Positions 1 through 25,021 of a DNA stretch of 25,412 nt are shown here, piece by piece. A program made the translations under genes and the position numbers. Numbering within the stretch: position 1 is the first letter of the stretch; each line of letters opens with the position of its first letter. The notes beneath the pieces were generated by a model. That model worked only from the letters and a program-made list of their open reading frames with translations. It was not told the origin of the DNA and searched no databases. Where the stretch lies: NCBI GenBank assembly GCA_964442805.1, contig CAYUAM010000001.1:1-25412 (forward strand), in the 5' to 3' direction. The DNA comes from an uncultured Anaerolineales bacterium. Its GTDB lineage: Bacteria; Chloroflexota; Anaerolineae; UBA7937.

Positions 1-955
1 GATCCACCAGGACATAGACGACGTCAATCGCGAAATTGGCGAGCAACACACCGATGATGATGAAGAGGAAGCATCCCTGGATGAGGAAGTAATCCTGATT
101 CTGAATAGCGGCAAGAAGCAGGTAGCCGATTCCGGGGTATGAAAACACGACTTCTGTTACAAGAGCACCAGCAACGATGACACCCAGTTGCAGCGCCAGC
201 CCGGTGAGCTGGGGAAGCATGGCGTTTCTGAACGCGTACTTTCTGACCAGACGTCGTGGTGCCCCAAGTGCTTCGAGGTAGTGAGAATAATCCGCCTCGA
301 GTTCGTAGATGATCATGTTCCGCATTCCAATCGCCCAACCACCAAACATCACCAGGAATAGGGAGGCGAAGGGTAAGAACCAGTGGTGCAGAAGGCTCCC
401 GATGAGGGCCCATGAAAGATGGGGCCGCAACGTGTAGCTGTACGCACCGGCAATCGGAAAGACACCCAGAACAATTCCAAACACCCAGGCCAGCAAGATA
501 CCGAGCCACATATAAGGAGTCGCCGTGAGGAGATACCCGACTGGTAATATGGTGTTGTCAAGCCACTTAGTTCGCGCAGCGAAAGCACCGAAATGGTTTC
601 CAGCATACCAGCTCAGCAGGATCGCTGGAAGCAGAAGAAAGATGTCATAGGGTACAGCATGCAGGATTACCTTGGTCACAGGCTGCGGAAACACATATAC
701 GCTTATCCCAAGGTCACCATGGAAAAGGGCGTTCCAGAAGTTGAGGTACTGCTGCCAGATGGGGAGATCTAATCCAAAGACTCTTGCGAAATAGTCATAC
801 ATCGCCCGAGCAGCCTCAGGGGTCAGCGCGGTCCTCGACAACATATTCCGAACAGGATCGCCGGGCATGAAGCGTGGGATCAACCAGTCGATGGTCACCG
901 CAAAAAGAAAGGTCAGGATGTAAACGAGTAGTTTTCTTCCGAAATACCGTTTCAC
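1..955 (-). CDS. ABC transporter permease, OppB/DppB family (3' end runs off the window)
   Basis: Not in the ORF track because there is no stop in the window. GTG at 955 with RBS GGAGG. Translation begins MKRYFGRKLLVYILTFLFAVTIDWLIPRFMPGDP, includes an EAA-like loop (ALGAPRRLVRKYAFRNAMLPQ), and ends ...ANFAIDVVYVLVD at the edge. Confidence 0.93.
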   Translation of the reverse strand, partial: MKRYFGRKLLVYILTFLFAVTIDWLIPRFMPGDPVRNMLSRTALTPEAARAMYDYFARVFGLDLPIWQQYLNFWNALFHGDLGISVYVFPQPVTKVILHAVPYDIFLLLPAILLSWYAGNHFGAFAARTKWLDNTILPVGYLLTATPYMWLGILLAWVFGIVLGVFPIAGAYSYTLRPHLSWALIGSLLHHWFLPFASLFLVMFGGWAIGMRNMIIYELEADYSHYLEALGAPRRLVRKYAFRNAMLPQLTGLALQLGVIVAGALVTEVVFSYPGIGYLLLAAIQNQDYFLIQGCFLFIIIGVLLANFAIDVVYVLVD

Positions 956-988
956 GCTAGTTCCTCCCTAACAGGAAGGCTGCACGAA

Positions 989-1025
989 CACCGCCCCTCC
1001 CGCAAGCTGAGAAGGAGGGGCGGTG
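989..1025 (-). other. 12-bp perfect stem-loop between binding-protein and permease genes (likely mRNA stabiliser)
   Basis: CACCGCCCCTCC (989-1000) / GGAGGGGCGGTG (1014-1025); no U tract on the coding strand. Confidence 0.6.
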
Positions 1026-1058
1026 CTGAACACTCTTACTGTGCCTGCTCCAATTCAC

Positions 1059-2855
1059 TTACTCTGCCGGTGGCACCGGCTTCAAATTTATGAGTGTCTG
1101 CAATCCACCCAATTGCCAGTATCCGGACCAAGTAGTAGGAAGAGTCTTGGGAGCATCTGCTGCTTCTGACGGCCAGTTCGTCCAGACCGCGTTGCTGAAC
1201 TGGGACCACAGACCGTTGTACCAGAGCGGAATCATGGGCATCTCTGTCAGCATTTTTTCCTGAATCTTTGAACAAGCGGCCTTCATACCCGCCTCATCAT
1301 CAGCAGGTATCTTGGCAAGTGCGTCCACAAGATCGAACATCTCCTGGTCCTCGTACCTGCCAAAGTTGCCGCTTTGCATTTGTTCTTGGATCGGGTGTCT
1401 GAACAAGAGGTTATACAACGTCCATGGGGTGTTACTCATAGAGGCCCAGTTGTTCAGTGTCATATCGAATGTGCCAGTCTGAAGCGCAGTGTTCCAGGCG
1501 CCATAATCCGGGGTTGCAGCTTTAATATTGATCCCCGCGCCTTGGGCGCTCGTGGCGATAACATTAATCGCCTCCATCCAGTCCGTCCATCCGAACGGGC
1601 AGGTAACTTCCAGTTCGATCGCGGACCCATCGGGTGCTTTGAAGAAGCCATCGGCGCCCTTCGTGTATCCGGCCGCAGTAAGGATTGCCGCTGTTTGTGC
1701 CGGATCATACTTGTAACCCAGCCTCGCAACCATATCCGCGTCTGCGTACTTGTCCAGGCTAGGAAGAAGGCCGGTCGGACTGGCAGCCTTGACCAGGCTG
1801 GCGTAGGCGACGTTAACAATGTCGTCTACATTGATGGCGAAAGCAAGCGCCCTCCTGAAAGCCGGGTCGTCCATCGGCGGTTTTGTCGTATTCAAGAACA
1901 AAACGGCCGTATTGGCAGAGAGCATGTACGGGGCTGCGGCGAAATAAGTCTTAACGTAACCCTTCTTTGCCAACTCTGCAACGCCCGGGAGGAAGTTGTT
2001 GCTCAGGTCGAGTTCGCCCTTAATGACCATACCGAGAGCGACGTTGTTACTGGAAGTGCGAATATCGACGATCCTCTTGGGAGCGGGCACACCAAATATG
2101 CTTGCTCCCCACCAGTTCTCGTTTCTCACCCATACGTTTCTATCTTCGCTACTTGACTCAAACAGGTATGCCCCCGAGCCAATAGGATTTTCATTCGCGC
2201 CGACGGTGATCTCCTCTTCCGTTCTGCCTTCCCAGAGATGCGTTGGAACTATCGGAATATTGTAGAGGCCGTTCGCCCATTCCTGGTAGAGGGGGTCGGT
2301 GAACTTGAATTGCAGGCTGTAATCGTCGACCGCTGTAACACCAGTCAGATACTTCCACACTGGGGCGAACCAAATCGCAGAATACTTCTGGCCCAGTTCG
2401 AAGGTGAACTTAACGTCGGCAGCCGTCAATGGTTGGCCGTCGCTCCAGGTGAGGCCCTGCCTGAGCGTCACGTCATAGGTAGTGGCATCGGTCCATGCTC
2501 CACTCTCCGCGAGCCAGGGCGTTAACTCACCGGTCATCGGGTCAAACGCGAATAGGAATTCATACACGTTTCCGATGGTTCCTGTTGTATTAGCAAGGCT
2601 CCCTGGTTGGAAAGGATTCCAGGTCGATGGTGGACCCCACGCTGCTCCGCTGACGTAAAGGGTTTCGCTCCGTTCGTAAGTAACAGCTGACGGTGTCGGC
2701 GTGACCTCAACCACCACCGTCTCCTTCACCGGCACCTCCACCTCCACGGTCTCCTTGATGACCTGTGGCGTAGGAGTAACAGCCGGACCGCAAGCGCTGA
2801 GCACTAGGCCCAGAACCGCGAGCAAACTTATGAGACAGAAAACTGACTTGCGCAC
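1059..2855 (-). CDS. ABC transporter substrate-binding lipoprotein, family 5 (probably oligosaccharide-binding)
   Basis: 598 aa. Lipobox LSAC, P/T/V/E-rich linker, family-5 motifs (LTPWLAESG, LTAADVKFTF, RRALAFAIN). Lies upstream of an OppB-type permease. Confidence 0.92.
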   Translation of the reverse strand: MRKSVFCLISLLAVLGLVLSACGPAVTPTPQVIKETVEVEVPVKETVVVEVTPTPSAVTYERSETLYVSGAAWGPPSTWNPFQPGSLANTTGTIGNVYEFLFAFDPMTGELTPWLAESGAWTDATTYDVTLRQGLTWSDGQPLTAADVKFTFELGQKYSAIWFAPVWKYLTGVTAVDDYSLQFKFTDPLYQEWANGLYNIPIVPTHLWEGRTEEEITVGANENPIGSGAYLFESSSEDRNVWVRNENWWGASIFGVPAPKRIVDIRTSSNNVALGMVIKGELDLSNNFLPGVAELAKKGYVKTYFAAAPYMLSANTAVLFLNTTKPPMDDPAFRRALAFAINVDDIVNVAYASLVKAASPTGLLPSLDKYADADMVARLGYKYDPAQTAAILTAAGYTKGADGFFKAPDGSAIELEVTCPFGWTDWMEAINVIATSAQGAGINIKAATPDYGAWNTALQTGTFDMTLNNWASMSNTPWTLYNLLFRHPIQEQMQSGNFGRYEDQEMFDLVDALAKIPADDEAGMKAACSKIQEKMLTEMPMIPLWYNGLWSQFSNAVWTNWPSEAADAPKTLPTTWSGYWQLGGLQTLINLKPVPPAE

Positions 2856-2953
2856 TGCTTTTCTCCTTTCTCCTCCCTAATGATACTCCGTTGAGGTAGA
2901 GAATGGTACCTAAGTCTCTATGTCCTGGCATCACCTCCTTTCACTTCAGCGAC

Positions 2954-3970
2954 CTAGGGAGAGCCACAAGAGTTCCTGATGACCAGTTCCGTGGGCAAGA
3001 CGATCCTCTGGACAGGAGCCTCTTCTTCTGATGAGCCCTCCACTAGGCTCAGCAACACCTCTACTGCCATGGAACCCATCCGTTCAATCGGCTGGCGTAC
3101 CGTGGTCAATGCTGGCTCAATCGCCGAGGCGATGGGTATGTCATCGAAGCTGACCAGAGCGATGTCTTGGGGTACCTGCCGGCCAGCCTGACGGAGCGCT
3201 TTGAGGGCGCCAATAGCCATCATGTCGCTGGCAACGAAGACGGCGCTGGGGGAGGCGGGGAGCAACCGTTGCATCCCCACCATCCCGCTGCTCTCGGTAA
3301 AGTCTCCCTCGACAATTAGCCCTTCCTCCACGGGAACGCCATGTGCTTGCATGGCCTGACGGTATCCTTCCAGGCGGTCCTGGCCATGGGTCGTGTCCAG
3401 CCTCCCAGTGATGGTGGCGATGCGCCGGTGCCCCAAGCCGATTAGGTGCTCAACCGCCATCCGTGCCCCACCGAGGTTGTCAACGTCCACGGAATGAACT
3501 TGCCTGTTGGGATGCCGCCCCACAGAGACACACGGCACACGGTCGCGCAGCAAATCGGAGATGAGGGGATCGTCCAGTGAGGCTGAAGCCACGATCACGC
3601 CGTCGAGGTAACCGTTGCCCAGCAAGTTCTGGTACATCTCCTGCTGGTCGGCGGAGCCAGCGAACAAGGAGAGCATCAGCTGATACCGGTGGGCGTTACA
3701 AGCCTCAGTGGTTCCACGCAGCAGGATGGAGAAAAAAGGGTCGGTGAAGAGCGTCGTCACCGCCTCGGGGATGACCATACCGATGATCTGGGTGCGGTTA
3801 GTGGCTAGGCTGCGGGCAACCGCATGAGGTTGGTAGCCGGATTTGCGGATAGCCTGCCTGATTCGTTCCCTCGTTTCAGGCCGCACATGGGGGTGGTTGT
3901 TGATGACACGCGAAACGCTTGAACGGGAGACCCCGGCCAGTCGGGCAACTTCTTCCAGCGTAGGGAGCAT
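2954..3970 (-). CDS. LacI-family transcriptional regulator
   Basis: HTH MLPTLEEVARLAGVSRSSVSRVIN and sugar-binding domain (VGALKAL-type motif, DIALVSFDDI). The true start is ATG at 3970; the longer ORF-track start lies inside the IS. Confidence 0.95.
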   Translation of the reverse strand: MLPTLEEVARLAGVSRSSVSRVINNHPHVRPETRERIRQAIRKSGYQPHAVARSLATNRTQIIGMVIPEAVTTLFTDPFFSILLRGTTEACNAHRYQLMLSLFAGSADQQEMYQNLLGNGYLDGVIVASASLDDPLISDLLRDRVPCVSVGRHPNRQVHSVDVDNLGGARMAVEHLIGLGHRRIATITGRLDTTHGQDRLEGYRQAMQAHGVPVEEGLIVEGDFTESSGMVGMQRLLPASPSAVFVASDMMAIGALKALRQAGRQVPQDIALVSFDDIPIASAIEPALTTVRQPIERMGSMAVEVLLSLVEGSSEEEAPVQRIVLPTELVIRNSCGSP

Positions 3971-3980
3971 CACCCGCCTT

Positions 3981-3994
3981 TGGGACCGCTCCCA
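3981..3994. promoter_or_regulatory. LacI-type operator 2 (CelR/CebR-box-like)
   Basis: TGGGACCGCTCCCA, one mismatch from TGGGAGCGCTCCCA. Confidence 0.75.
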
Positions 3995-4052
3995 ACCACA
4001 TCCAGGAAAATGACCACGATTGACGCTCTGAAAAGGCTCGTCGAGCGATTTT

Positions 4053-4070
4053 TTTGGGAGCGCTCTCAAA
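4053..4070. promoter_or_regulatory. LacI-type operator 1 (CelR/CebR-box-like), overlapping predicted +1
   Basis: TTTGGGAGCGCTCTCAAA, 18-bp near-palindrome; core is one mismatch from TGGGAGCGCTCCCA. Confidence 0.8.
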
Positions 4071-4073
4071 ACT

Positions 4074-4102
4074 AGTATACCACAAACCGGAACGCTTGTC
4101 AA
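4074..4102 (-). promoter_or_regulatory. sigma70-type promoter of the lacI-ABC operon
   Basis: Minus strand TTGACA-17 bp-TATACT with extended -10 TG. Confidence 0.85.
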
Positions 4103-4109
4103 GAGTCTG

Positions 4110-5124
4110 TACTCGTTCAGTCGGGGTCTTCCCGTCCAGAGCCTGATGGGGTCGGAAATGGTTGTAAGTCCATTCCCACTCTTGAAGGGCTCGATTGAGG
4201 TGGACCACCTCCATATCTCCATCATAGATCTCGTGGAACTCCTCAGTGTGGGTCCTTTGGGCTCTCGCCACATGGCCATTTAGTTTGGGGGAGCGGGGTG
4301 GCAGGACGAAAAGTCGTATCCCTCGCTCCTGACAAGCCTCTTCAAAGGCGGCCTGGAATTCAGAGCCCCCATCTACCGGCAAGGCCTTTATGGGAAAAGG
4401 CATTCGTTTAGCCAGGGTCTCCAGGAAGCCCACCGCGGTAGCAGAGGTGGCTTTGGTCTGCACCTCCATCACATCCCAACGAGAGACCACATCCCGGGCG
4501 GTGAATTGCTTCAGTACCACTCCTGGCATGAGTCGCACATCCAAAGTATCCACCTCCACCAACTCTCCTGGGATCTCCACCTGGTAGCCCTGGGGCTTGC
4601 GTATGGCGTAGGGGCGAGGATACTGTCGTCTGCGGACGGAAACCCTGTTCCTTACAGACTCTTTGAGCACCCCGCGGGCCTTGGGGTGAGTGAGGATACG
4701 CCCCACCATGGAGGTAGAGACCGGCCAGCCCTCCCGCCTCAGGAGCACCACCAACTTGTCCTTCCCCCAGCGGGGATACTCTTCCCGCAGGTGGAGCACC
4801 GCCTGGGCCAATTCCATACTCCAGGTGGGCCGACGGAGGTTTTTGGGCCTCCGGCTCTTCTCTTCCAATCCCCTGGCCCCTTCCTTTTTGAGCCTCTTCT
4901 GTCAACGGTAGTGCGTTCGCATCCTGAGGATGCTCAGCATCCGAAGGAAGGGTGGAGCGGGAGATGAAGAGAGTCTGGCTGGCCTGGCTGCTAGAGAGAC
5001 CCTGCGCTCTCAGGGCCTCGAAGCAGCGCAGCCAGCGCAGCCTTTCCTGGGCCTTGGGGCTCAGCACGATTGGCCTATGACGGGAGAGGTAGTAAAATGC
5101 TCTGGGTAGTCCAACTACCTGCAT
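4110..5124 (-). pseudogene. IS481/integrase-core DDE transposase pseudogene
   Basis: HTH N-terminus in one frame and rve core (VEVDTLD, VDGGSEF, NGHVARAQRT) in another. Lesions: 37-bp insertion, TGA at 4902-4904 where YRW is expected, catalytic E replaced by A (VER to VAR), C-terminus cut after KTP. Confidence 0.85.
4911..4947. repeat. 37-bp palindromic insertion inside the transposase
   Basis: GTGCGTTCGCATCCTGAGGATGCTCAGCATCCGAAGG contains overlapping inverted repeats GCATCC-TGA-GGATGC and GGATGC-TCA-GCATCC. Removing it restores the frame ...RSTL-YR*QKRLKKEGARGLEEKSRRP. Confidence 0.65.
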
Positions 5125-7200: not shown

Positions 7201-7800
7201 ATGACCAGGGCGGTAAGGTGTCCTCATTGTCTTTCTGTTGTCAGGGCTCAGATTAATGAGAGGTGCCGGTGCCCCTCATGTGGGGGATATTTCTTCGTCG
7301 CGAACCCAAGCCGAGCCCTCCTTGGCCCCTGCAGAAATCTCTATTCCATACCTCGAGGGAACCAGCGGCCAAGACGGGGAATGGCTAGGACGAGGAGTGG
7401 GGTGGGGTATGGTCCAATCCTTCAGGGGCCGGGGTACCAAGACGGGCTGGGGAGGTGGAACTCTATCATCTCCGGCGCCTGGCCGGCCACGTGTCAGGGC
7501 AGGCCAGGCGTACCAGGCCGAGGAACGATTATCGAGCCTTCCTTATATCCCAAGGAGCCGGAATGGGAGATAATTGACGGCAACCCTGATTATCAATTGA
7601 TTATCGATTTTCCATATCATCGGGATCAGGAGATAGCCGTGGAGACTGAGGGTGGGATCTTAGCAATCCGAAGTCTCAAAGAGGATGCTCCTCCTCGCTA
7701 TCACATCGAGTTTGCCCTTCCGCCGGAGGTTGTCGAAAAGAGCCTTAGCCGGGTGTTCAATAACGGCTCTCTGATCTTGCGCTTTGACAAGAAGGAGTAG
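7201..7800 (+). CDS. Zinc-ribbon / disordered linker / Hsp20-like (alpha-crystallin) domain protein
   Basis: RBS AAGGAG. N-terminal CPHC...CRCPSC, R/G/P-rich middle, and C-terminal EPEWEII...YQLIIDFP...EFALPPEV...[12 protein letters not shown] resembling the Hsp20 beta-sandwich. Confidence 0.65.
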
Positions 7801-10331: not shown

Positions 10332-10419
10332 TCTCCTTTTCTTGTTTGCTTAAAAGATGGATGGGAGGTGCGGGTATGCAAATGATGGGGATAACGGGAT
10401 GTGGAGGAGGGAGGTTCCC

Positions 10420-12591
10420 ATGACTAGGAAGGACAAAAAAGAAGAGGGGGTCCTGACTTTGCGGGTTGCAGAAGGGCAGAGCAAGGATGTTGGAAGGGGC
10501 ATTGCCCGCATCGACCCCCAGGATTTCGAGAGGATCGGGGCGGCGATCGGCGATATCGTCGCTATCACCGGGAAGAGAACGACCGTGGCCAAGATCATGC
10601 CTGCCTATCACGCCGACCGAGGAAAAGGCATCGTGCAGATCGACGGCATAATTCGAGAGAACGCTCAAGCCAGTCTAGACGAAAAGGTCCGTATTCACAA
10701 GGTTGATCACCAGATAGCCAAGCAGCTCACCTTGGCCCCTCTGGGCTCGGGGCGGACTCTGCCTCGAGGGTCGGATAGCCGCTACGTTGGAAGGTTGCTC
10801 GAAGGGCTAGTTATCACTGAAGGGGATCGGGTTCGCGTCAACCTCTTCGGTACCCGCTCCGTGGATTTCACCGTGACCGATACCTCTCCTGAGGGCATGG
10901 TTATGGTGGCAGCAGCCACGATCACCAAGATCGAGGGGGAAGGGGCGGAGAGGGAGCGGGGGCTGAAGGTCTCCTATGAGGATATTGGGGGGCTGGGCAA
11001 GGAGATTCACCGCATCCGAGAGATGATCGAGTTGCCATTGAAATACCCTGAGGTCTTCGATCGGTTGGGCATCGAAGCACCAAAGGGCGTCTTGCTACAT
11101 GGCCCTCCGGGCTGCGGCAAGACCCTTATCGCCCGCGCCGTGGCCTCGGAAACATCTGCTCATTTCTTTCCCGTCAACGGCCCGGAGATCATCCACAAGT
11201 TCTACGGTGAGAGCGAGGCGCACCTACGGGAGATCTTCGAGCAAGCGAGCCGCAATGCGCCGAGCATCATCTTCCTAGATGAGATCGACGCTATCGCTCC
11301 CAAACGGGAGGAGGTACATGGCGAGGTGGAGAAACGGGTGGTGGCCCAGCTTTTGGCCCTGATGGATGGCTTGAAGTCCCGAGGCGAAGTGATAGTCATC
11401 GGGGCCACCAACATCCCGAACTCTTTGGACTCTGCTCTACGTCGTCCAGGCCGCTTCGACCGGGAGATCACCATCAGCATCCCGGACAAGAATGGCCGTC
11501 TGGAGATATTGGAGATACACACTAGAGGAATGCCCCTTGCTGATGATGTGGATCTGGAAAGACTGGCCGAGATCACCCACGGCTTCGTGGGAGCTGACCT
11601 GGAGGCTTTGTGCCGCGAAGCGGCCATGATCACCTTGCGTCAACTGATGCCGGATATCGACTTCGCTAAGTCTCACATCCCCTACGAGCGGCTGCTGGAA
11701 TTAGAGGTGACCATGGACAATTTCCTGACCGCTCTAGGAGAGGTCGAACCATCGGCCATCCGTGAGGTCTTCACTGAGGTTCCCGATGTCAGATGGGAGG
11801 ACATTGGGGGCTTGGAGGAGGTCAAGGAGATACTGAAGGAAACTGTTGAATGGCCTCTCAAGTACCCTGAGCTCTTCGCACAGGCCAAGACCGCGCCGCC
11901 TAAAGGGATACTTCTGTACGGGCCGCCGGGCACAGGCAAGACGCTTTTGGCCAAAGGGGTAGCCAACGAAAGCGAAGTGAATTTCATCTCCGTCAAGGGC
12001 CCGGCGCTCATGTCTAAGTGGATGGGGGAGAGCGAAAAGGGGGTGCGTGAGGTATTTAAGAAGGCCCGGCAAGCAGCACCCTGTATCATCTTCTTCGACG
12101 AGATCGATGCCCTAGCCCCCATACGGGGCTATGGCGGCGGAGACTCCCATGTGGCTGAGCGGGTGGTCAGCCAGTTTTTGACGGAGATGGACGGCATTGA
12201 GGAACTGAAAGGGGTAATCGTCTTGGCCGCCACTAACCGTTTGGACATCATCGACCCAGCATTGTTACGTCCTGGCAGGTTCGATGTGCTCATCGAGTTG
12301 CCCCTCCCCGACCGTGAGGCCCGTGAGGCGATCTTCAAGATCCATACCAAGGACAAACCCCTGGCTTCCGATGTTGACCTGAGGATCTTGACGGATATGA
12401 CCGAGGGCTCAGTGGGAGCGGACATCGAATCGATCTGTCGCCAGGCCTCGATGTTAGCCATTCGAGAGTTTCTCAATGAGGAGGTCGACTCTAAATCGTA
12501 TGAGAGTTTTCAGATCACCATGCGACATTTCCGCCAGGCGATAGAAATGGCCGGGAAACTGGCCTCGCCGGGACCATTGACGAAGGGTTAG
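10420..12591 (+). CDS. cdc48: CDC48/p97/VAT-family double AAA+ ATPase
   Basis: ATG 10420 with RBS GGAGG. N-domain [18 protein letters not shown]; Walker A GPPGCGKT and GPPGTGKT; Walker B FLDEID and FFDEID; two RPGRFD arginine-finger motifs. Confidence 0.96.
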
Positions 12592-13507: not shown

Positions 13508-13720
13508 GTGGCAGTGGAGAAGGCTATCGCGTCCTCGAGCCTGGTCGAAGTTGTCGACCGGGTCTTGGACAAGGGGATCGTGATTGATGCTTGGGCCAGG
13601 ATCTCCCTGGTGGGCATCGAGATACTAGCCCTCGAGGCCAGGGTCGTGGTCGCTGGGGTAGACACCTTCCTCAAGTACGCCGAGGCCATCGGCTTGACGC
13701 CGCTGGCTGCACCGGCCTAG
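13508..13720 (+). CDS. gvpA: Major gas vesicle structural protein GvpA, copy 1
   Basis: 70 aa, [56 protein letters not shown]; GTG start with RBS AGGAGGTG. Confidence 0.98.
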
Positions 13721-13797: not shown

Positions 13798-14010
13798 ATG
13801 GCAGTGGAGAAGGCTATCGGGTCCTCGAGCCTGGTCGAAGTTATCGACCGGGTCTTGGACAAGGGGATCGTGATCGATGCTTGGGCCAGGATCTCCCTGG
13901 TGGGCATCGAGATACTAGCCCTCGAGGCCAGGGTCGTGGTCGCTGGGGTAGACACCTTCCTCAAGTACGCTGAAGCCATCGGCTTAACCCCCTTGGCTGC
14001 TCCGGCGTAG
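13798..14010 (+). CDS. gvpA: Major gas vesicle structural protein GvpA, copy 2
   Basis: 68/70 aa identical to copy 1; the RBS region is duplicated as well. Confidence 0.98.
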
Positions 14011-14038: not shown

Positions 14039-14119
14039 CTTGCGGGCGGCGTCGAGGGCCGCCAGGTCAGCCCGGTGGTGCTCGATGACAGAGGCCGGCC
14101 TCGACGTCCGCCTCGCAGG
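14039..14119 (+). other. Long GC-rich stem-loop after gvpA2
   Basis: Nested pairs CTTGCG/CGCAGG, GGCGG/CCGCC, CGTCGAGG/CCTCGACG. Confidence 0.65.
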
Positions 14120-14181
14120 TGCAAGATTGCGAAGTAGAGAATCCCCCAGGGGACGAGGAGATATATGAAAGAGGTGAAAAG

Positions 14182-14730
14182 ATGCTTTTCGCAGAAGAGA
14201 TGCAAGAGTTGGCTGAAGGGATCGTGGCCTCGAAGCGCAGCCGCATAGAGGGGATAGCGAACCTAAAGAATGAGACCCAAAATCAGTTGGCCGGCTACAA
14301 GAGCGATCGCCAAGCCATGGCCCAGGAGTTACACGCCGGACTTGAGGCGGATAAGGCGGCTCTGATGGCTGATACCGCCACTCTGATGAAGGAACTAGGT
14401 GAACTTGACGCAGCCCGCCAGGCAGAGGTGAGGGTTGAGTTGGCCGAGGCCAGGTCTCAATTGAAGAGCGACACCGCTGCTCTGATGAAGGGACTGGGCC
14501 GAGGGACCAAGGCCCGTAGGAAGGAAGTGAAGGCCGAGTTGGCCGAGGCCAGATCTCAATTGAAGAGCGAGATCGGTGCTTTGATGAGGGAACTGAAGGC
14601 GGAGATGAAGGCGGCTCGGAGGGCCTGGCAGCAAGGGCTGCGGGCAGCGCTACGAGAGAGTAAACCGAGGCCACCGGCACGGCGAACCTCTCCACGTAAA
14701 GCCGCATCGCCGAAAGAACCGGCTGCATGA
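14182..14730 (+). CDS. gvpC: GvpC-like protein with 33-aa helical repeats
   Basis: ATG 14182 with RBS GAGGTG. Three 33-aa repeats (DNA repeat at 14437 and 14536, 99 bp apart). Lies between gvpA and gvpN. Confidence 0.8.
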   Translation: MLFAEEMQELAEGIVASKRSRIEGIANLKNETQNQLAGYKSDRQAMAQELHAGLEADKAALMADTATLMKELGELDAARQAEVRVELAEARSQLKSDTAALMKGLGRGTKARRKEVKAELAEARSQLKSEIGALMRELKAEMKAARRAWQQGLRAALRESKPRPPARRTSPRKAASPKEPAA

Positions 14731-16533: not shown

Positions 16534-17094
16534 ATGACAAGGGATAAGGAGAAGAAGCGGGATGAAATGGAGGCCATAGACCTGGGCGGTCTCTTCAAGG
16601 GGATCGGCGATCTCATCGAGTTGGTCTCAGGGATGGTGGAGAAGGTGGATCTAGCCAACCTCGATGAAGAGACCCTCTCTAGGCTGCGGCGAGCCAGCCA
16701 GAGCGGGGTCGTAGGAGCACCGAGAAGCGTCTACGGCGTCTCGATACAGCGAGGAGTGGGTGGCATCTCCAGGGTGCAGCCCTTCGGCAATATCCGCCGC
16801 ACCGAGAGAGGCCCTGTCGTTGAGGAGGTGAGGGAGCCCCTCACCGATCTCTTCGAGGAGGATGATCTACTCTTGGTCGTTGCTGAGTTGCCCGGCGTGG
16901 AGGAGAAGGAGATACGGATCGAAATCGAGGACGACACTCTCAAATTCTCCTCCACCGGAAAGAGGAAATACGCCAAGGGACTTCCCCTTCCTTTTCCTGT
17001 CGACGAGAGCACCATGGAGACCACCTACAAGAACGGCATCTTGGAGATCAAGTTGGGCAAGAGAAGCGAGCCGGATGAGGAGAAAACCGAGTGA
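16534..17094 (+). CDS. hsp20: Hsp20/alpha-crystallin protein, paralog of 9057-9596
   Basis: [14 protein letters not shown]...[27 protein letters not shown]...AELPGV...YKNGILE; its stop overlaps the dnaK start (GTGA). Confidence 0.9.
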
Positions 17095-18923
17095 GTAAGG
17101 CGATCGGCATCGACCTGGGAACCACGAATTCGGTGATGGCGGTGATGGAGGCGGGCAGGCCCATGGTCATCCCCAATACGGAGGGCAGCCGCCTCCTCCC
17201 TTCAGTGGTAGCCATCGACGGAAAAGGCGAACGGCTGGTGGGGGAGGTGGCCAAATGGCAAGCCATCATCAATCCCCACAATACGGTCTTCTCCATTAAA
17301 CGTTTCATGGGGCGAAAATTATCCGATGCTTCTGTGCAATATGACAAGGCGCTGGTGCCCTACGAATTGACCGCTGCCGACAACGGCGATCTCCGGATAG
17401 TCATCAAAGGCCGGGGGTACCCACCGCCGGAGATTTCGGCCATGATTCTGCAGAAGTTGAAACGCGATGCCGAGATGTACCTGGGCGAGCCGGTCACTCG
17501 GGCGGTGATCACCGTGCCAGCCTACTTTAACGATAGCCAACGCCAGGCAACTAAAGAGGCGGGGCGAATAGCCGGGCTCGAGGTATTGCGCATCATCAAC
17601 GAGCCCACCGCCTCGGCTCTAGCCTATGATTTTCCCCACGAGAAGCGGGAGACCATCGCCGTCTACGACCTGGGCGGGGGAACCTTCGATATCTCCGTCC
17701 TAGATCTGAGCGCTGGCGTCTTCGAAGTCCTCTCCACCAGCGGCGATACCCATCTGGGTGGGGATGACCTAGACAGAAGGACCATCGAATGGCTCTGCGA
17801 TGGTTTCTTGGAGGAGGAGGACATCGACCTGCGAGAGGACAGGGTAGCCTTGCAAAGACTCAGGGTAGCAGCAGAGCAGGCCAAGATCGAACTCTCGGCC
17901 GCGCAGCAGGCCCAGATCGATCTACCCTTCATTGCTAGAGATGGCAATGACCCCAAGCATCTCAATGTCACCCTCAGCCGCTCGAAATTAGAGCAGTTGG
18001 TGGGCGATCTGATCGAGAGGACCATCGAGCCCTGCTGGCAAGCGTTGGCGGATGCTGGTCTCAGGGTTTCTGATGTGGATCATGTGATCCTGGTGGGCGG
18101 TCAGACGAGGATGCCTCTCGTGGTGCGTACCGTTCGTGAACTCTTCGGGAAGGAGCCCCACCGGGATATCAACCCCGATGAGGTAGTTGCGCTGGGAGCC
18201 GGTATCCAAGCCGGGGTTTTGACCGGCGATGTGAAAGGGGTGCTCCTCATCGATGTCACCCCCTTGACGCTGGGCATAGAGACCTCGGGCGGCGTGGCCA
18301 GCCCCCTCATCCCGCGCAACACCACCATCCCCACTCGCAGGAGCCAGGTCTTCACTACTGCCAGGGATGACCAGAGTAGTGTGGAGATACACGTGATGCA
18401 GGGCGAGCGGGCCATGGCCGTGGAGAATATGACCCTGGGTCGCTTTGTCTTGGAAGGTATCCACCCCGCGCCGCGCGGCGAGCCCAAGATCGAGGTCACT
18501 TTCCAGATCGACGCCGACGGCATCTTGCAGGTTACTGCTCAGGACCAGGCCACAGGTAAGGAACAGCAGATCACCGTCGCCGCTTCCAGCGGCCTCTCAG
18601 AGAAGGAGATCAAGTGCATGGTCAAGGAGGCGAAGGAGTACGCCGAGCGGGACAGAGAGCGACGCGAGGAGATCGAGATCCTCAACCGAGCCGACAGGCT
18701 GGCCTACCGCGCCGAGAAGACGTTGCAGCGGTATGGCGATGACGTGCCGCCAGCCGTCAGGAGGGAGATGAAGAGCAAGGTAGCGGCTCTGCGCGAGGCG
18801 CTGAAGGAAGGAGAGATCCCTGCCGTGAAGAACGCCTGGCAAGGGCTAATTGAGACGGCAGAGAAGATCGCGGCTTGGCTTGATGAGGAGCCGATGGAAA
18901 TAGCACCGCCTCTAGATAGATGA
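17091..18923 (+). CDS. dnaK: Hsp70 chaperone DnaK (cluster-specific paralog)
   Basis: [31 protein letters not shown], linker [12 protein letters not shown]; 610 aa with a short C-tail; no grpE or dnaJ adjacent. Confidence 0.97.
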
Positions 18924-18939
18924 GATGGAGGATGAGGGC

Positions 18940-20019
18940 ATGGCAGAGGAGGCCAAGTATATTTACGGAGTGATCCAGAACGGAGGGAGAAGGACCTTCG
19001 GCTCTATTGGTATAGGTGGACGGGGAGATGAAGTGTATGTGGTCCCCTGTCAGGATTTGGCTGCGGTGGTCAGCGATTGCCCAGCCATAGATTACAAGGC
19101 GGTAAAGGAGAAGGAGAAGATAGTCCGTGATCTGGCGGCACATCAACGCGTGACCGAAGAGGTCATGAAGCACTGTTCCATCCTACCCATGAAGTTCGGC
19201 ACCATGGTGGAGGAGGAGAAGGAGGTGGAAAGCGTATTGCGTCAAGGGTATTTCAACCTCAAGGAGGCTCAGGCCGCCTTCCAGGACAAGGTTGAGGTAG
19301 AAGTGGTGGTCACCTGGGACCTCACTTCCGTCTTCCAGGAAGTTGGCAACGAGGAGCCCATCGCCAAATTGAGAGCCAAGACGGAGGGTAGACCGGGCTT
19401 AAGAGGACTAAACGATAGGATCAACCTGGGCAAGATAGTATATGAATCTCTATCTCGCAGGCGGGAAGATCATCAAAGAGAGATAGTTGAAGTTCTCGCT
19501 AACTGTTCCATCGATAGGCAAAAGAACGCTCTCATGGATGATAGTTTTGTGATGAACGTGGCCTTTCTCATCGATAAGGAGCGACAGGATGAGTTCGATG
19601 AGAGGCTTGAGGAGTTGGATAAGGGAATGGGTGGCGCTTTGAACTTCCGACGCATCGGGCCCCTGCCTCCCTATAGTTTTGCCACCATCGAGGTGCGGCC
19701 TATGACTCACCAAGAGGTCAAGGGGGCCAGGGAGTTATTGGGCCTGGGTGAGAAGGCCAGCCTAGGGGAAATAAAGGAGGCCTACTATGACCTGGCTCAG
19801 GAGTGTCACCCTGATGCCCAGCCGGACGGCAATGCAGGAGAGCGCTTTACCCAAATCGCCCAGGCCTATGAGTTGCTAAAGAGCTACTGTTTGGGACAGG
19901 CAGCGGCCCAAGGAATCACCTCTAAGAAGGCAGCTGCCGAGTATTCTTGCTCCTTTACTCCGGCGGCCATTGAGGAAGGCGTTCTGGTCACCATCAAGCG
20001 TTTGGGGAGAGAGACCTGA
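18940..20019 (+). CDS. gvpF: GvpF/GvpL-family protein with C-terminal J-domain
   Basis: KYIYGVI...LPMKFGT...VEVEV...GPLPPYSF, then ELLGLGEKASLGEIKEAYYDLAQECHPD...FTQIAQAYELL with intact HPD at 19807-19815. Confidence 0.88.
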   Translation: MAEEAKYIYGVIQNGGRRTFGSIGIGGRGDEVYVVPCQDLAAVVSDCPAIDYKAVKEKEKIVRDLAAHQRVTEEVMKHCSILPMKFGTMVEEEKEVESVLRQGYFNLKEAQAAFQDKVEVEVVVTWDLTSVFQEVGNEEPIAKLRAKTEGRPGLRGLNDRINLGKIVYESLSRRREDHQREIVEVLANCSIDRQKNALMDDSFVMNVAFLIDKERQDEFDERLEELDKGMGGALNFRRIGPLPPYSFATIEVRPMTHQEVKGARELLGLGEKASLGEIKEAYYDLAQECHPDAQPDGNAGERFTQIAQAYELLKSYCLGQAAAQGITSKKAAAEYSCSFTPAAIEEGVLVTIKRLGRET

Positions 20020-21373: not shown

Positions 21374-21471
21374 CAGCGAAAGGGATCGAACTTCCCATTT
21401 CACTTAGGGCCTTGACATCAGGGATCAAGTTCCCGATCAGGGAGAGATTCGACAGGGAGGGAGGATAGAGG

Positions 21472-21870
21472 ATGGTTAAGCAAAAAAGGGCAGAGGGCTC
21501 AGTCCTAGAGCAGATCGCAGCCACTCGCAGAGTGGCGATACTGAAGGACTCTATCAAGCAGGAGGAAGACGGGCATTACAGCGAAGCGATCGATGGATAC
21601 CGACAGATCATCGACCAACATCATGGCACCCCAGAGGAAAAGGAGGCCAGAGAAAGGATGCTGGACCTGGCCCGCCTCTTCCAGAGCAAAGGGCAAAGTT
21701 ATCGAGCGAGGCACCTTTTCTGGCTCTTGGAGCAACTCTATACACCTCAGAGATTCAAGAACATAAAGGAATTACGCCGGGCGCGAGTTAAAGAGATACT
21801 GGATGAGATCCACGCCGAAAAGCGTGCTGAGGAGGAGAGAAGGGCTAGAGTAGAAGCTGAAGGCTTGTAG
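21472..21870 (+). CDS. TPR-like helical protein with charged C-tail
   Basis: YSEAIDGYRQIIDQHHGTPEEKEARERMLDLARLFQSKGQSYRARHLF resembles a TPR pair; RBS GGAGG. Confidence 0.65.
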   Translation: MVKQKRAEGSVLEQIAATRRVAILKDSIKQEEDGHYSEAIDGYRQIIDQHHGTPEEKEARERMLDLARLFQSKGQSYRARHLFWLLEQLYTPQRFKNIKELRRARVKEILDEIHAEKRAEEERRARVEAEGL

Positions 21871-22052
21871 GGGTTTTGGTCGTCGGGCGCGATCCCCTAT
21901 GCCATGTCTAGACCTAATAGCGATCTTGGGCTAGGCTACCGAGGCCTTTCAACCACCGTAGGTTTTGGCGAGCCCCGAGAAATCGAGTCTGAGCAGCAAA
22001 GCCCTGGGGCATCGCTCATAGACAAAGACTCTTATGGAAGGAGAGAGGCAAA

Positions 22053-22409
22053 TTGGCCAAACAATATGTGGAGCCGGACCGACGTGGGAGCCTCATCGAT
22101 GTTATAGACACCATCCTGGACAAGGGCTTGGTGATCAACGCCGACATCACCGTCTCGGTAGTGGGTGTAGAGCTCTTGGGCATCAAAATAAGGGCCGCCT
22201 TGGCCTCCTTTGAGACCGCAGCCAGACACGGCCTGGAGTTCCCTTCAGGGACCAACATACAAACGCCAGCCTGGGCCGAGGCCCAAATCTCCAAGGAAGA
22301 ATGTCCCCAGTGCAGCAAACGGGTGGCAGCGGAGGAGTTGCTGGAGGTGGGCTGTCCTTGGTGTGGTTGGGTTAGCGCTCGGGCTGAAGCCAAGGCCCTA
22401 GAGGCCTAA
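22053..22409 (+). CDS. gvpJ: GvpJ-like (GvpA family) protein with C-terminal zinc ribbon
   Basis: [44 protein letters not shown], then CPQC-x13-CPWCGW; TTG start. Confidence 0.85.
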
Positions 22410-22484
22410 GAAGCGACATCACTAGCCAGATGTCACTGAGCGCCTCTACCGAGGCTCTTATGTTCGTTAGCAAGAGGCGATGAG

Positions 22485-22778
22485 ATGGTATTTATGGAGC
22501 CCTTCTGGATCCTGATAGATCTGATCTCGGGAGAGGCCAGGAAAGAGGACGAGAGGAGGGGGGACCCGAGATACGTGAAATGTCTCCACTGCGGCGGCCT
22601 GGTGTTGAAAAGCGAGGTTAGAAGGAGAGGAGGTTGCTACCTCTGTGGCTGGGTACCGGGGGCTGAAACGGTACGAAAAGAGGAAAGGGCTTTGAGGGTG
22701 AGATGCCCCCAATGTGGCCGCCCGGTGCTGAAAAGCGAACTCATCAAAAGGGGGTGTTATCTCTGCGGCTGGAGGTGA
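22485..22778 (+). CDS. Small tandem zinc-ribbon protein
   Basis: CLHC-x14-CYLCGW and CPQC-x13-CYLCGW. Confidence 0.75.
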   Translation: MVFMEPFWILIDLISGEARKEDERRGDPRYVKCLHCGGLVLKSEVRRRGGCYLCGWVPGAETVRKEERALRVRCPQCGRPVLKSELIKRGCYLCGWR

Positions 22779-22849
22779 CATCTCCCGAATAGGGAGTGGT
22801 CGCCAACCGGCGGCGCTCTCACCACGCAGAATTAGGTTAAGGGACGACA

Positions 22850-23941
22850 TTGGAAGCAAAAACCGTTCTACTGCCATCGAGTTACAGCAAGGCTACCCTG
22901 GTAGACCTACTGGATAGGGTCTTGGAGAAAGGGCTGGTGATTAACGCCGATATCATCATCTCCGTGGCCGGCATACCGTTGTTAGGGGTTAACCTGAGAG
23001 CGGCTCTGGCGGGCATGGAGACCATGCTGGAATATGGGCTGATGCGCGAGTGGGACGAGCGCACCCGTGAATGGGAGCGGAAACATATCGAAAAGAGGGG
23101 ACCGCACCTATTGGCTGAAGAGGAGATCCTCTTACTGATGTATGGGGCCCATTGGCATAGCAAAGGCATCTACCGCGCTTGGCGGCCTGGACACCTCTAC
23201 CTCACCAACAAGAGGCTATTTCTGTTTCGCAGCGAGCCTGGGGAGATGCTCTTTGAGACCCCCCTGGAGAAGATCAAAGCCTTGGCTATCCGGAGAGAGA
23301 CTCACTTCACGGGCATCGAAAGAGATATGGTTTACGTCGCTCTCAACCCTGAAAGGCTAGCCTACCTCTGCGCTGAGAGGCCAAGGGAACTTCAAGAGGC
23401 CATTCGCAGGAGAATAGAGGCCTTAGGCCTTCCCTTGGATGAGAGCCCTGGGCTTTCTCCCCTCGATGCGGAGATAGATGGGCTCCTTGGGGAAGATGAG
23501 ATAACCGCTGAAGCCAAGATGTGGTATCAACTCCCCCCCTCTGGCATCAGGGGAGAGAGATGGGGACCAGGTCGGTTGTATCTGACCAATAAGCGTCTCT
23601 TTTGGCGGTGCCATGAGGATCGCAAGATACCATTCGAGATCCCCCTCGCCGAGATAAGGGGGGCCAGGATGGAGAGGAGGGATCTAGGAGGGCTGATAAG
23701 GGAAAGGCCTGTTCTTTGCCTCTCTTACGGAAACCCCTTGGGCGCGAAAAGGGCTCTCTTTGTGGGGGATGATCTGACCGAGTGGGAGAAGGCCATCAAC
23801 CGCATCGTTGGGGAGATGGAGAGCTGTCCTCGTTGTGAACGCCGTGCTCCTACAAGACGGTTGTTAGAGAGGGGATGTCCTGACTGTGGCTGGGTGAGTC
23901 CCTGCCGGAGAGACGAAGCCTCGCCCCCGTTGGCGAGATAG
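22850..23941 (+). CDS. GvpJ-like domain fused to two GRAM/PH-like repeats and a zinc ribbon
   Basis: [44 protein letters not shown]; two repeats W(R/G)PG(H/R)LYLTNKRLF...FE(T/I)PL(E/A)(K/E)I; CPRC-x13-CPDCGW. Confidence 0.82.
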   Translation: MEAKTVLLPSSYSKATLVDLLDRVLEKGLVINADIIISVAGIPLLGVNLRAALAGMETMLEYGLMREWDERTREWERKHIEKRGPHLLAEEEILLLMYGAHWHSKGIYRAWRPGHLYLTNKRLFLFRSEPGEMLFETPLEKIKALAIRRETHFTGIERDMVYVALNPERLAYLCAERPRELQEAIRRRIEALGLPLDESPGLSPLDAEIDGLLGEDEITAEAKMWYQLPPSGIRGERWGPGRLYLTNKRLFWRCHEDRKIPFEIPLAEIRGARMERRDLGGLIRERPVLCLSYGNPLGAKRALFVGDDLTEWEKAINRIVGEMESCPRCERRAPTRRLLERGCPDCGWVSPCRRDEASPPLAR

Positions 23942-23961
23942 ATGGGGCAGGAGGGGGAATC

Positions 23962-24294
23962 ATGGCTGGCATAGTCGACCTCGACGAAGATAATTTCAAA
24001 CACGGGATCTTGGGACTGGTCATCACTCTGGTGGAGATAATAAGGGATACCCTCAAGTTGCAGGCTTTCAAGCGGATAGAGGGTGGGAGCCTCACTGAGG
24101 AAGAGATCGACAGGTTAGGACGAGCGCTTTCAGATCTCGATATGGCCCTTGATCAGATAAAGGAGGAGCAAGGGATAGCCGACACGGTTCAAAGCGTGAG
24201 AGATGGCTTGGATGAGATCGTGGACGAGATCTTAGATAAGATGGTAAACCCCCTGGGGTGGGCGGAGGAGTTCGAAAAGGAGGTGCAAAGATAA
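23962..24294 (+). CDS. gvpK: Gas vesicle protein GvpK-like
   Basis: LDEDNFKHGILGLVITLVEIIRDTLKLQAFKRIEGGSLTEEEIDRLGRAL. Confidence 0.9.
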   Translation: MAGIVDLDEDNFKHGILGLVITLVEIIRDTLKLQAFKRIEGGSLTEEEIDRLGRALSDLDMALDQIKEEQGIADTVQSVRDGLDEIVDEILDKMVNPLGWAEEFEKEVQR

Positions 24295-24471
24295 AGTGGC
24301 CCGGACCTTCCTCCTCTCCTCGAAGGCGAGCAAATCCTCCTCCACCAGCAAAGGGGTTATCTCTCCAGAGGCTCCTGGAGATTGGGCTACCTCTACCTGA
24401 CGGATTAAAGGCTCCTCTTTCGTCGGAGGAAAGAGGTGCGGGGTGTGATGAGGGCTGATGATGTCGTTTAA
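24291..24471 (+). pseudogene. GRAM/PH-like single-domain pseudogene
   Basis: From 24295 reads SGPDLPPLLEGEQILLHQQRGYLSRGSWRLGYLYLTD*RLLF, with TAA at 24406-24408 where the paralog at 22850 has K (LYLTNKRLF). RBS AGGAGGTG is followed by ATA rather than ATG. Confidence 0.7.
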
Positions 24472-25021
24472 GGAGATCGGGGAAGAGGATCTGAAGAGGG
24501 TCGTCGAGGCTTTGGACCCGGCAAGTGCCCAGATGGTCTGGTATCTCTGGGAGCATAGACATGCCAAGATAGAAGAGTTAAGAGAGGTGTTGGGCGAATC
24601 CTCTCACATGAACGTCTTGGTGCGAATCAAGGAGACGATAAACCCCACAGCCTGCAAGATAGTAGGCAGGCCGATCTTGGTCTTTGAGAAGGGGAGGATA
24701 GACCGCTCTAGCGGGGAGAGGATCCTTCATAGTTGGTGGTTGAACAGAGATTCTGAGAGGAGGCAGATAGAGGGGGAGAAGTTGGTGGATATCTTTGACG
24801 AAGGGGACCATATCTTACTCATCGTGGAACTGGTCGGTTTTGATGAAAAAGGTATCCAATTGGCCGTAGAGGATGAGACGCTTGTGTTGAAGGCGGAAGC
24901 CCCTGGCCGAAGTGTGCAGGAGGAGATACCCCTTCCTCCCCAGGTTGATGGCCAAAGGTTTGAGATGACCTATCGCAATAACATGTTGCAAGTCAGGTTT
25001 GAGAAGGAGCAAGCAAGATGA
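24458..25021 (+). CDS. Winged-helix-like N-domain fused to an Hsp20/alpha-crystallin domain
   Basis: N-half LDPASAQMVWYLWEHRHAKIEELREVLG; C-half LVDIFDEGDHILLIVELVG...EEIPLP...YRNNMLQVRF. Confidence 0.78.
   Translation: MMSFKEIGEEDLKRVVEALDPASAQMVWYLWEHRHAKIEELREVLGESSHMNVLVRIKETINPTACKIVGRPILVFEKGRIDRSSGERILHSWWLNRDSERRQIEGEKLVDIFDEGDHILLIVELVGFDEKGIQLAVEDETLVLKAEAPGRSVQEEIPLPPQVDGQRFEMTYRNNMLQVRFEKEQAR

Follow-up and report, generated by a model that had tools for sequence, protein, structure and literature searches.

GvpJ and GvpM are homologues of GvpA that are located in the bicones and not in the cylinder of the gas vesicle, and they are regarded as putative nucleators (PMC10903477, PMC9994262). 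In Halobacterium, GvpJ and GvpM bind GvpL and each other (PMC9501494), and both the nucleation of gas vesicles and the roles of these two proteins are stated open questions (PMC9994262, PMC10903477). Here we analyze a gas vesicle (gvp) gene cluster of an uncultured Anaerolineales bacterium, contained in a stretch of 25,412 nucleotides (contig CAYUAM010000001.1 of assembly GCA_964442805.1, positions 1 to 25,412; hereafter the window). Within this cluster, one small motif with four cysteines, a Cys4 ribbon, is repeated four times across three adjacent genes, which encode a GvpJ-type protein, a small stand-alone protein (the free ribbon protein), and a GvpM-like protein with GRAM domains (GvpM-GRAM).

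The closest described proteins are GvpJ and GvpM of Halobacterium salinarum (PF00741), which likewise have a GvpA-like head, are encoded in a gvp operon beside gvpK and gvpL/F, and are presumed to be minor, early-acting shell proteins (PMC9501494). They differ in that neither carries a Cys4 ribbon and in that GRAM domains are missing from GvpM. Elsewhere, some proteins of the GvpA family have lineage-specific appendages at the C-terminus, in the form of the six 21-residue repeats of Anabaena flos-aquae GvpJ and the long C-terminus of B. megaterium GvpA, the latter being a proposed site of interaction with GvpU/T (PMC10903477). However, these are repeats or an extended tail with no metal-binding fold, and they are not common to several proteins of one cluster. 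The original prediction, which was made from the letters of the window, stated that the ribbon is not known from characterized Gvp proteins, and our results agree: tblastn matches to Halobacterium GvpJ, which has no ribbon, end at query residue 89 or 70, with the ribbon starting at residue 84, and no paper was found in which gas vesicles are combined with a zinc ribbon, or GRAM with GvpJ. What is apparently new is that known shell-protein families carry an undescribed, cluster-specific module, predicted to bind metal, and that a new family of small accessory proteins accompanies them.

A six-frame scan of the window with the strict pattern CxxC-x13/14-CxxCGW returns four copies in three adjacent genes, all on the plus strand (Table 1). 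Not a single strict motif occurred in 200 mononucleotide shuffles of the window read in six frames (0/200). The copies lie exactly where the original prediction had placed them, and the glycine that it noted before the second CxxC, that is, before the third cysteine, is present in 4/4. Gaps of 72-76 bp separate the three genes, and their starts are backed by homologues that start at the same residues and by purine-rich stretches, resembling ribosome-binding sites, 5' of each gene. The three genes look co-transcribed; a promoter and terminator scan of positions 21400-24500 found sites no more numerous than in shuffled sequence.

Table 1. Ribbon genes, ribbon copies and related features of the window
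Feature	Position	Strand	Basis
GvpJ-type gene, 118 residues: GvpA-like head, conserved linker and C-terminal ribbon	22053..22409	+	Pfam Gas_vesicle 57.6 bits, residues 13-51
J-type ribbon, CPQC-x13-CPWCGW	22302..22370	+	Motif scan; in the 118-residue open reading frame
Stand-alone 97-residue protein: N-terminal helix and two ribbons	22485..22778	+	15 close homologues; AlphaFold2 model
Predicted N-terminal helix of the free ribbon protein	22497..22562	+	AlphaFold2 model
Free ribbon 1, CLHC-x14-CYLCGW	22581..22652	+	Motif scan; in the 97-residue open reading frame
Free ribbon 2, CPQC-x13-CYLCGW (canonical free type)	22704..22772	+	Motif scan; in the 97-residue open reading frame
GvpM-like head, two GRAM/PH-like domains and C-terminal ribbon, 363 residues	22850..23941	+	Pfam, NCBIfam
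M-type ribbon, CPRC-x13-CPDCGW	23825..23893	+	Motif scan; in the 363-residue open reading frame
gvpK, directly 3' of the GvpM-GRAM gene	23962..24294	+	Pfam GvpK 64.6 bits; neighborhood recurs in related loci
Divergent N-terminal Cys4 ribbon CPHC-x13-CPSCGG (7219-7281) fused to an Hsp20 domain	7201..7800	+	NCBIfam Hsp20, residues 118-199

Further copies were sought in 79 loci recovered with the GRAM protein, in those recovered with the free protein, and in later look-ups. Across 93 sources, a few of them redundant, GvpJ-type proteins account for 70 ribbons, GvpM-GRAM proteins for 75, and small free proteins, 40 in number, for 52. Every copy lies on the strand of the operon, and no open reading frame (ORF) of another kind longer than 170 residues contains one. 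Alignment of the copies gives the consensus xxExCPxCG-x10-ELL-xx-GCxxCGW(V/I)S(A/P), a two-knuckle arrangement in which the four cysteines are invariant and the P, L, G, and W positions nearly so across 87-121 aligned copies. Profile scores are bimodal, with members, drawn from 89 loci, above 40 bits and all else in the loci below 15 bits, including DnaJ-type CxxCxGxG repeats and other Cys-rich proteins of those clusters. The four motifs of the window are copies of one gas-vesicle-specific Cys4 mini-domain with defined boundaries and a length of about 28 residues, which most likely binds one metal ion, presumably Zn2+. Three subtypes follow the carriers: the J subtype reads CPQC...CPWCGWISA, the M subtype ExETCPQCG..AP.KELLE.GC..CGWVSP, and the free subtype YWxxCPxCGRxVVKKELxKKGCYxCGW.

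The association of the ribbon with gas vesicles extends well beyond these loci. A profile of the ribbon alone, run against 5.8 billion proteins, matched 19 small proteins at 48-80 bits, followed after a gap by generic ribbons at 29 bits or less. When the genomic context of four free-ribbon matches was inspected, each lay in a gvp cluster just 3' of a gvpJ-type gene, one of them in a Nanoarchaeota genome. An exhaustive search of 1.84 billion representatives with the ribbon profile gave 142 matches at E<=1e-3, of which 54 have a GvpJ/M head and/or GRAM, the rest being mostly free-type proteins or fragments of J/M genes; about 14 of the 142, such as C2H2 arrays, are false positives. Among the same matches are further carriers, namely, ribbon-Hsp20 proteins (P0260 and P0265, with Pfam HSP20 above its cut-off), a ribbon-GvpG fusion of 196 residues (P0194; Pfam GvpG 68 bits), and a triple-ribbon protein. 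As the profile searches match few proteins, nearly all of them Gvp proteins or linked to gvp genes, the module is rare among proteins and, in the sample searched, almost confined to gas-vesicle proteins. Enrichment of the motif in gvp loci, which the original prediction had proposed to measure with a hidden Markov model built from the four copies, is thus strongly positive, and its idea of a shared tag fits the occurrence of the same module on Hsp20 and GvpG. A single TIR-domain protein of 154 residues (P0297) also ends in an M-type ribbon and is either a real fusion or an assembly chimera.

The GvpJ-type protein is the most widespread carrier. At 57.6 bits it lies above the Gas_vesicle (PF00741) cut-off of 25, and its best NCBIfam model is haloarchaeal GvpJ (NF046090) at 95 bits, below the curated cut-off of 125; as this is a haloarchaeon-specific "exception" model, the term GvpJ-type denotes orthology by best match and position only. 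Homologues of this ribbon-bearing protein form 3336 clusters at 90% identity, and the best 120 of these are all 113-152 residues long, cover the ribbon, and are 70-86% identical to the window protein, with several phyla represented. Residues C84, P85, Q86, C87, C101, P102, W103, C104, G105, and W106 are invariant in 68 homologues. Databases name these proteins only "gas vesicle protein" or give them automatic zinc-finger names. Among the matches listed for a DNA pattern encoding CPQC-x13-CPWCGW are more than 119 species genomes, both bacterial (Chloroflexota, Desulfobacterota, Bacillota, Bacteroidota, Atribacterota, Nitrospirota, Planctomycetota, and Actinomycetota) and archaeal (methanogens, Bathyarchaeia, and Halobacteria).

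Comparison of the carriers within loci indicates that their features are largely nested. Of 147 loci with both J and M, a sample biased because its selection relied in part on the features being counted, 146 have the J ribbon, 121 have an M with GRAM, and 78 have an M with a ribbon. The J ribbon is the widest feature; M-GRAM is rarely found without it, and every M ribbon sits on a protein that also has GRAM. Likewise, where loci were chosen by M-GRAM similarity and gvpJ was seen, the J ribbon is present in all but one (L082). Coupling between free and M ribbons is looser, with eight loci having the former without the latter. That GRAM might be an obligatory partner of the J ribbon is partly supported only, as 26 J-ribbon loci show M without a recognized GRAM domain, several of these ending at the locus edge.

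The distribution of the J ribbon also bears on whether the module could act as a sensor. Cys4-Zn sites can serve as redox switches, as in Hsp33 and RsrA. By analogy, oxidation of the four cysteines or loss of the metal could unfold the ribbon, switch nucleation on or off, and couple buoyancy to redox state, which the original prediction considered well suited to an anaerobe. It is consistent with such a role that the most ribbon-rich clusters, those with M ribbons, free ribbons, and further Cys-rich proteins, are mainly from lineages of anoxic habitats, and that there is a weak similarity to rubredoxin-like domains. However, the J ribbon is equally conserved in Nesterenkonia, Sinomonas, Brachybacterium, Streptomyces (on the chromosome), Natrinema, and Natronococcus, all of which are aerobic genera, and it is also found on plasmids of Streptomyces sp. 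SGAir0924 and Natrinema zhouii. Restriction of the ribbon to anaerobes is accordingly rejected, and the presence of the J ribbon in aerobic Actinomycetota and haloarchaea weakens the rationale of the original prediction. In addition, all rubredoxin-type matches are below threshold (17.0 bits versus 32 for the J protein with rubrerythrin-like NCBIfam NF033497; 16.2 versus 26.5 for its relative P0230 with Pfam RUBY_RBDX), and sequence features do not separate a sensor site from a structural one. We therefore consider a redox or metal sensor quite unlikely, although it is conceivable for the Cys-rich clusters of anoxic habitats.

In these actinobacterial loci, the genes are arranged as A-F-G-J(ribbon)-M(GRAM, no ribbon)-K-F. 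The plasmids carry still smaller modules, at L093 11986-14579 (Streptomyces sp. SGAir0924) and L094 11959-14519 (Natrinema zhouii), which consist of J with its ribbon, M with or without GRAM, K, and L/F; no gvpA, gvpN, or chaperone gene is annotated within 12 kb of either.

The second fused carrier, the 363-residue protein, matches Gas_vesicle (PF00741) at 60.6 bits against the cut-off of 25. The original prediction described it as a GvpJ-GRAM fusion. Its fusion to GRAM holds, but NCBIfam GvpM (NF046091) fits the head better than GvpJ does, with 93.9 bits over profile positions 3-67 of 67 as opposed to 56.1. The head remains below the haloarchaeal GvpM cut-off of 109 bits, and the protein would be better named GvpM-like-GRAM. 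Behind the head, GRAM (PF02893) is matched at residues 85-146 (29.8 bits versus a cut-off of 23.6) and Vps36 GLUE (PF11605) at residues 239-273 (29.0 versus 24.1). Orthologues of GvpM-GRAM were recovered in 79 loci of many phyla, and most keep the M ribbon. Some clusters with GvpM-GRAM also contain paralogues with a double GRAM/PH-like region and an Hsp20-like C-terminal region, without the GvpM head (L019 9502-10776, L020 4725-5960, L032 2420-3718, L080 12334-13620, and L081 12297-13574).

All 15 close homologues of the 97-residue free ribbon protein are placed after gvpJ, and in 39 of the 40 pairings of gvpJ and a free ribbon within loci, the ribbon lies no more than about 600 bp 3' of gvpJ, the outlier being at 2985 bp. 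An N-terminal stretch of the form M-x-F-D/E-P-...-L-x-x-I... is common to free ribbon proteins of many lineages. The idea that the N-terminal helix mimics helix alpha-1 of GvpJ was rejected, the profile-profile probability being 0.5%. Where homologues in other phyla have a single ribbon, it aligns with ribbon 2, and ribbon 1 is missing. Against the x13 profile, ribbon 1 scores no more than 13 bits owing to a one-residue insertion. Some homologues carry the Pfam accession PF28085.1 in precomputed annotation; the accession appears in no paper found, and a recent Pfam model may already cover part of the domain.

Other small Cys-rich proteins occur in related gvp clusters. These include several made of DnaJ-type CxxCxGxG repeats (L001 7478-8260 and 14517-15134; L004 2617-4998 and 9163-9762; and many others), a recurring family of about 65 residues with the pattern CPECGxxWRYxxxYxFCPxCG, and another of about 264 residues with the C-terminal end CPxCDGxIxLKTxGRVMxCxxCKNK. 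None of the three is present in this window.

Structural modeling with AlphaFold2 on the basis of alignments yielded models of only moderate quality. In the GvpJ model, residues 80-110 have a predicted local distance difference test score (pLDDT) of ~81 and form two strands, a short helix (EELLEV), the second knuckle, and a C-terminal helix, with the head poorly modeled. In the 97-residue model, which has a mean pLDDT of 66, residues 5-26 form a helix, and each of the two ribbons behind it is of strand-strand-helix type. Only the first knuckle lies in a clear beta-hairpin. The predicted layout begins with a CPxC knuckle placed in a beta-hairpin, continues with a short helix ("ELL"), and closes with a GCxxCGW knuckle. 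Foldseek comparison of the 97-residue model with the PDB gave a best E of 0.2, and sequence-profile matches in the PDB covered only the first knuckle, of generic CPxCGK type.

Among known families, the nearest to the isolated ribbon is Pfam DUF7560 (PF24441), an uncharacterized small Cys4 family on which no paper was found. Relatives with two or three ribbons exceed its cut-off (33-38 bits versus 27), some only by summing copies, whereas the window copies do not reach it (J 17.4, free ribbon 2 17.3, M 10.9, and free ribbon 1 no match); in every alignment, the matched stretch of the DUF7560 profile is about five positions longer than that of the ribbon. Generic Cys4 ribbons and rubredoxin-like knuckles, such as the AccD N-terminal ribbon, RNA polymerase subunit P, and the rubrerythrin C-terminal domain, likewise have two CPxCG-type knuckles about 13 residues apart and are of similar size. 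Besides the rubrerythrin-like match given above, the best scores were 24.1 bits for Zn_ribbon_ACC (cut-off 24.5) and 17.6 for RpoP, none reaching its curated threshold, and two features, the ELL helix and a GW following the fourth cysteine, are peculiar to the gvp module. DnaJ-type CxxCxGxG repeats are also Cys-rich, metal binding, and chaperone linked, and they occur as separate proteins in the same kind of gvp cluster, but they differ in motif and spacing and are absent among ribbon-profile hits down to 8 bits. In the J protein, the knuckles read CPQCSKRV and CPWCGWVS, and no window protein matches DnaJ_CXXCXGXG.

The same comparisons speak to a role in nucleic acid binding. Many small zinc ribbons bind nucleic acids, and it could be speculated that the free ribbon protein, whose ribbons are basic, binds gvp mRNA or DNA and controls expression, with the fused copies being functionally unrelated. 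Automatic annotation by JGI points in the same direction, with names such as "RNA-binding Zn-ribbon" given to ribbon proteins. On the other hand, the same module is found on proteins of a structural or chaperone-like kind, the J version of the ribbon is slightly acidic, and the Pfam, PDB, and Foldseek comparisons revealed no above-threshold similarity to any nucleic-acid-binding family. Such a regulator is very improbable.

When these results are combined with what is known of GvpJ and GvpM, the reading that we favor, with a probability of roughly 45%, is that the ribbon serves as a metal-stabilized docking knob on the exposed C-termini of minor shell proteins, within the J-M-K-L/F core. In a very large class of gvp clusters, the GvpJ orthologue has the ribbon as its C-terminal domain. 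The module has also been copied to the C-terminus of GvpM-GRAM, into the small free proteins encoded next to gvpJ on its 3' side, and, more rarely, to GvpG and proteins of the Hsp20/GvpH-like type. Because the C-terminal tail of a GvpA-type protein is reachable from the cytoplasm, as the proposed contact of GvpU/T with the tail of B. megaterium GvpA indicates (PMC10903477), the ribbon could be displayed there as a rigid, metal-stabilized knob on the shell proteins that putatively nucleate the bicone. As a common docking element, it might then join GvpJ, GvpM, and accessory proteins in the J-M-K-L/F core at the start of a gas vesicle, and the free proteins, made up of a helix and one to three basic ribbons, may be adaptors or competitors for the same site.

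Several observations are consistent with this docking function. The presence of the ribbon on several Gvp carriers (GvpJ, GvpM-GRAM, Hsp20, and GvpG) is as expected of a portable interaction tag, and docking would be the simplest account of a small, presumably metal-locked domain at this site that recurs in free proteins with a conserved N-terminal helix. The identity of 70-86% between GvpJ-ribbon proteins of different phyla reflects strong constraint. Finally, the J ribbon is kept in clusters reduced to J-M-K-L/F, and we therefore infer that its partner lies within this core or is the ribbon itself.

Other results weigh against a docking knob. The residues conserved over all classes (the four cysteines, P, L, G, and GW) look like determinants of the fold and not like a shared binding surface, and each class has a conserved surface of its own and a different mean net charge per 25-residue core (J -0.7, M +0.75, and free +2.4), which makes one common partner less likely. 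The M ribbon is absent from about 10 full-length M-GRAM orthologues, and the Bacillota loci yielded no free ribbon, which means that two of the three carriers can be dispensed with. The AlphaFold2 models, in turn, are only moderately confident in the ribbons (pLDDT ~70-81) and poor elsewhere.

The class-specific surfaces and charges, together with the lineage-wise losses of the M and free copies, keep alive the alternative that the ribbon is a structural cap with no partner. A ribbon folded around a metal could stabilize and solubilize the tail of GvpJ and GvpM, and its bulk could bar these proteins from the rib lattice, confining them to tips or nuclei. In favor of such a cap, the residues conserved in all classes are ones that would be expected to form the fold, GvpJ and GvpM are hydrophobic and prone to aggregation (PMC9501494), both are missing from the cylinder (PMC10903477), and unrelated C-terminal appendages such as the A. 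flos-aquae repeats occur on GvpJ in other lineages (PMC10903477). A cap, however, does not explain the free ribbon proteins directly after gvpJ, the fusions to the soluble proteins GvpG and Hsp20, or the extreme conservation of surface residues of the J ribbon that are not metal ligands. We regard it as unlikely.

A bolder extension of the docking knob is conceivable, in which the ribbons on all three carriers (GvpJ, GvpM-GRAM, and the free proteins) would have other ribbons or the PH-like GRAM domains as their binding partners. The bicone nucleus would then be a zinc-dependent hub, and metal supply or thiol oxidation would gate the formation of new vesicles. We consider this unlikely, but if true it would give gas vesicles their first defined switch of nucleation.

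Placed into a wider context, the gas-vesicle systems characterized so far represent the ribbon-less form, whereas a very large class of bacterial and archaeal gvp clusters carries the ribbon on GvpJ and often has it multiplied onto GvpM, small free proteins, Hsp20, and GvpG. Four cysteines in one small domain offer an easily mutated handle on the question of which proteins meet at the nucleus. Clusters of the ribbon type exist in cultured hosts, among them Sinomonas and Nesterenkonia, which are aerobic, and members of the Desulfosporosinus group. Within this group, gas vesicles are formed by Desulfosporosinus cupriresistens, and identical gvp clusters are reported for related species including D. 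fructosivorans (PMC12739157); in a D. fructosivorans locus (L057) we find both J and M ribbons. For the engineering of acoustic reporters from non-model clusters, a need for zinc and reduced cysteines could decide whether heterologous expression succeeds.

The three ribbon genes are part of a single large gvp cluster that, by Pfam and NCBIfam matches, spans from ~7.2 kb to the right end of the window and includes two copies of gvpA, a GvpN-type AAA_5 ATPase, GvpF, GvpL/F, GvpG, and GvpK. Its first part consists of the ribbon-Hsp20 ORF, an Hsp20/GvpH-like ORF, a Cdc48-like AAA+ ATPase, the two gvpA genes, and a protein with a 33-residue repeat; the middle comprises the GvpN-type ATPase, Hsp20, Hsp70, a fusion of GvpL/F with a J-domain, GvpF, and GvpG; and the last part holds a 132-residue ORF, the three ribbon genes, GvpK, and an Hsp20-like ORF. 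The nearest relatives are Anaerolineales and Anaerolineae metagenome-assembled genomes. The first ORF is co-linear with the archaeal proteins P0260 and P0265, which bear a true ribbon on Hsp20, and its own ribbon is too divergent to reach the threshold of the ribbon profile.

Chaperone genes are prominent in this cluster. The Hsp70 gene is immediately followed by GvpL/F fused to a DnaJ J-domain (17091-20019, plus strand), and the Cdc48-like protein is a double-AAA+ ATPase encoded at 10357-12591 (plus strand). Together, the three resemble a chaperone and unfoldase set dedicated to the assembly of gas vesicles, and the set recurs in many related loci. It is conceivable that the ribbon is a tag recognized when GvpJ and GvpM are held or delivered, either by Hsp70 together with the GvpL-J-domain protein or by the Cdc48-like ATPase, an idea favored by the joint occurrence of these genes and several Hsp20s here and in many related clusters and by the fusion of the ribbon itself to Hsp20 in some archaea. 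Yet neither Hsp70 nor Cdc48 is encoded in the 8-24 kb read from actinobacterial and haloarchaeal clusters with ribbon-GvpJ, and the Bacillota loci have no Hsp70 gene within 10 kb. Hsp70 or Cdc48 as an obligatory partner is disfavored by ribbon clusters with neither gene in the stretch read, and we assign the chaperone handle a low probability, comparable with that of the sensor.

Additional features of the window concern other parts of the cluster. The two gvpA copies (13508-13720 and 13798-14010) are near-identical tandem duplicates. Directly after them, on the plus strand at 14119-14730, lies a gene for a helical protein of 203 residues with a clear 33-residue repeat, which has a self-similarity score of 87 at offset 33 and a sub-period of 11. 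Its weak Pfam match is apolipoprotein-like, and we regard the protein as a candidate GvpC-like factor that strengthens the shell. The 132-residue ORF (21472-21870, plus strand) between gvpG and the gvpJ-ribbon gene keeps its position in Anaerolineae-type loci L001-L013 and was not detected in loci of other phyla.

The left end of the window, positions 1-5124, is not part of the gvp cluster and contains minus-strand ORFs at 1059-2855 (598 residues), 2954-4279 (441 residues), 3876-4868 (330 residues), and 4408-5124, the last two of which overlap. Read by eye from their translations, these ORFs resemble a lipoprotein-type solute-binding protein, a LacI-type regulator, and an integrase or transposase. 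A mobile-element gene at the border of the cluster could bear on horizontal transfer of the gvp genes.

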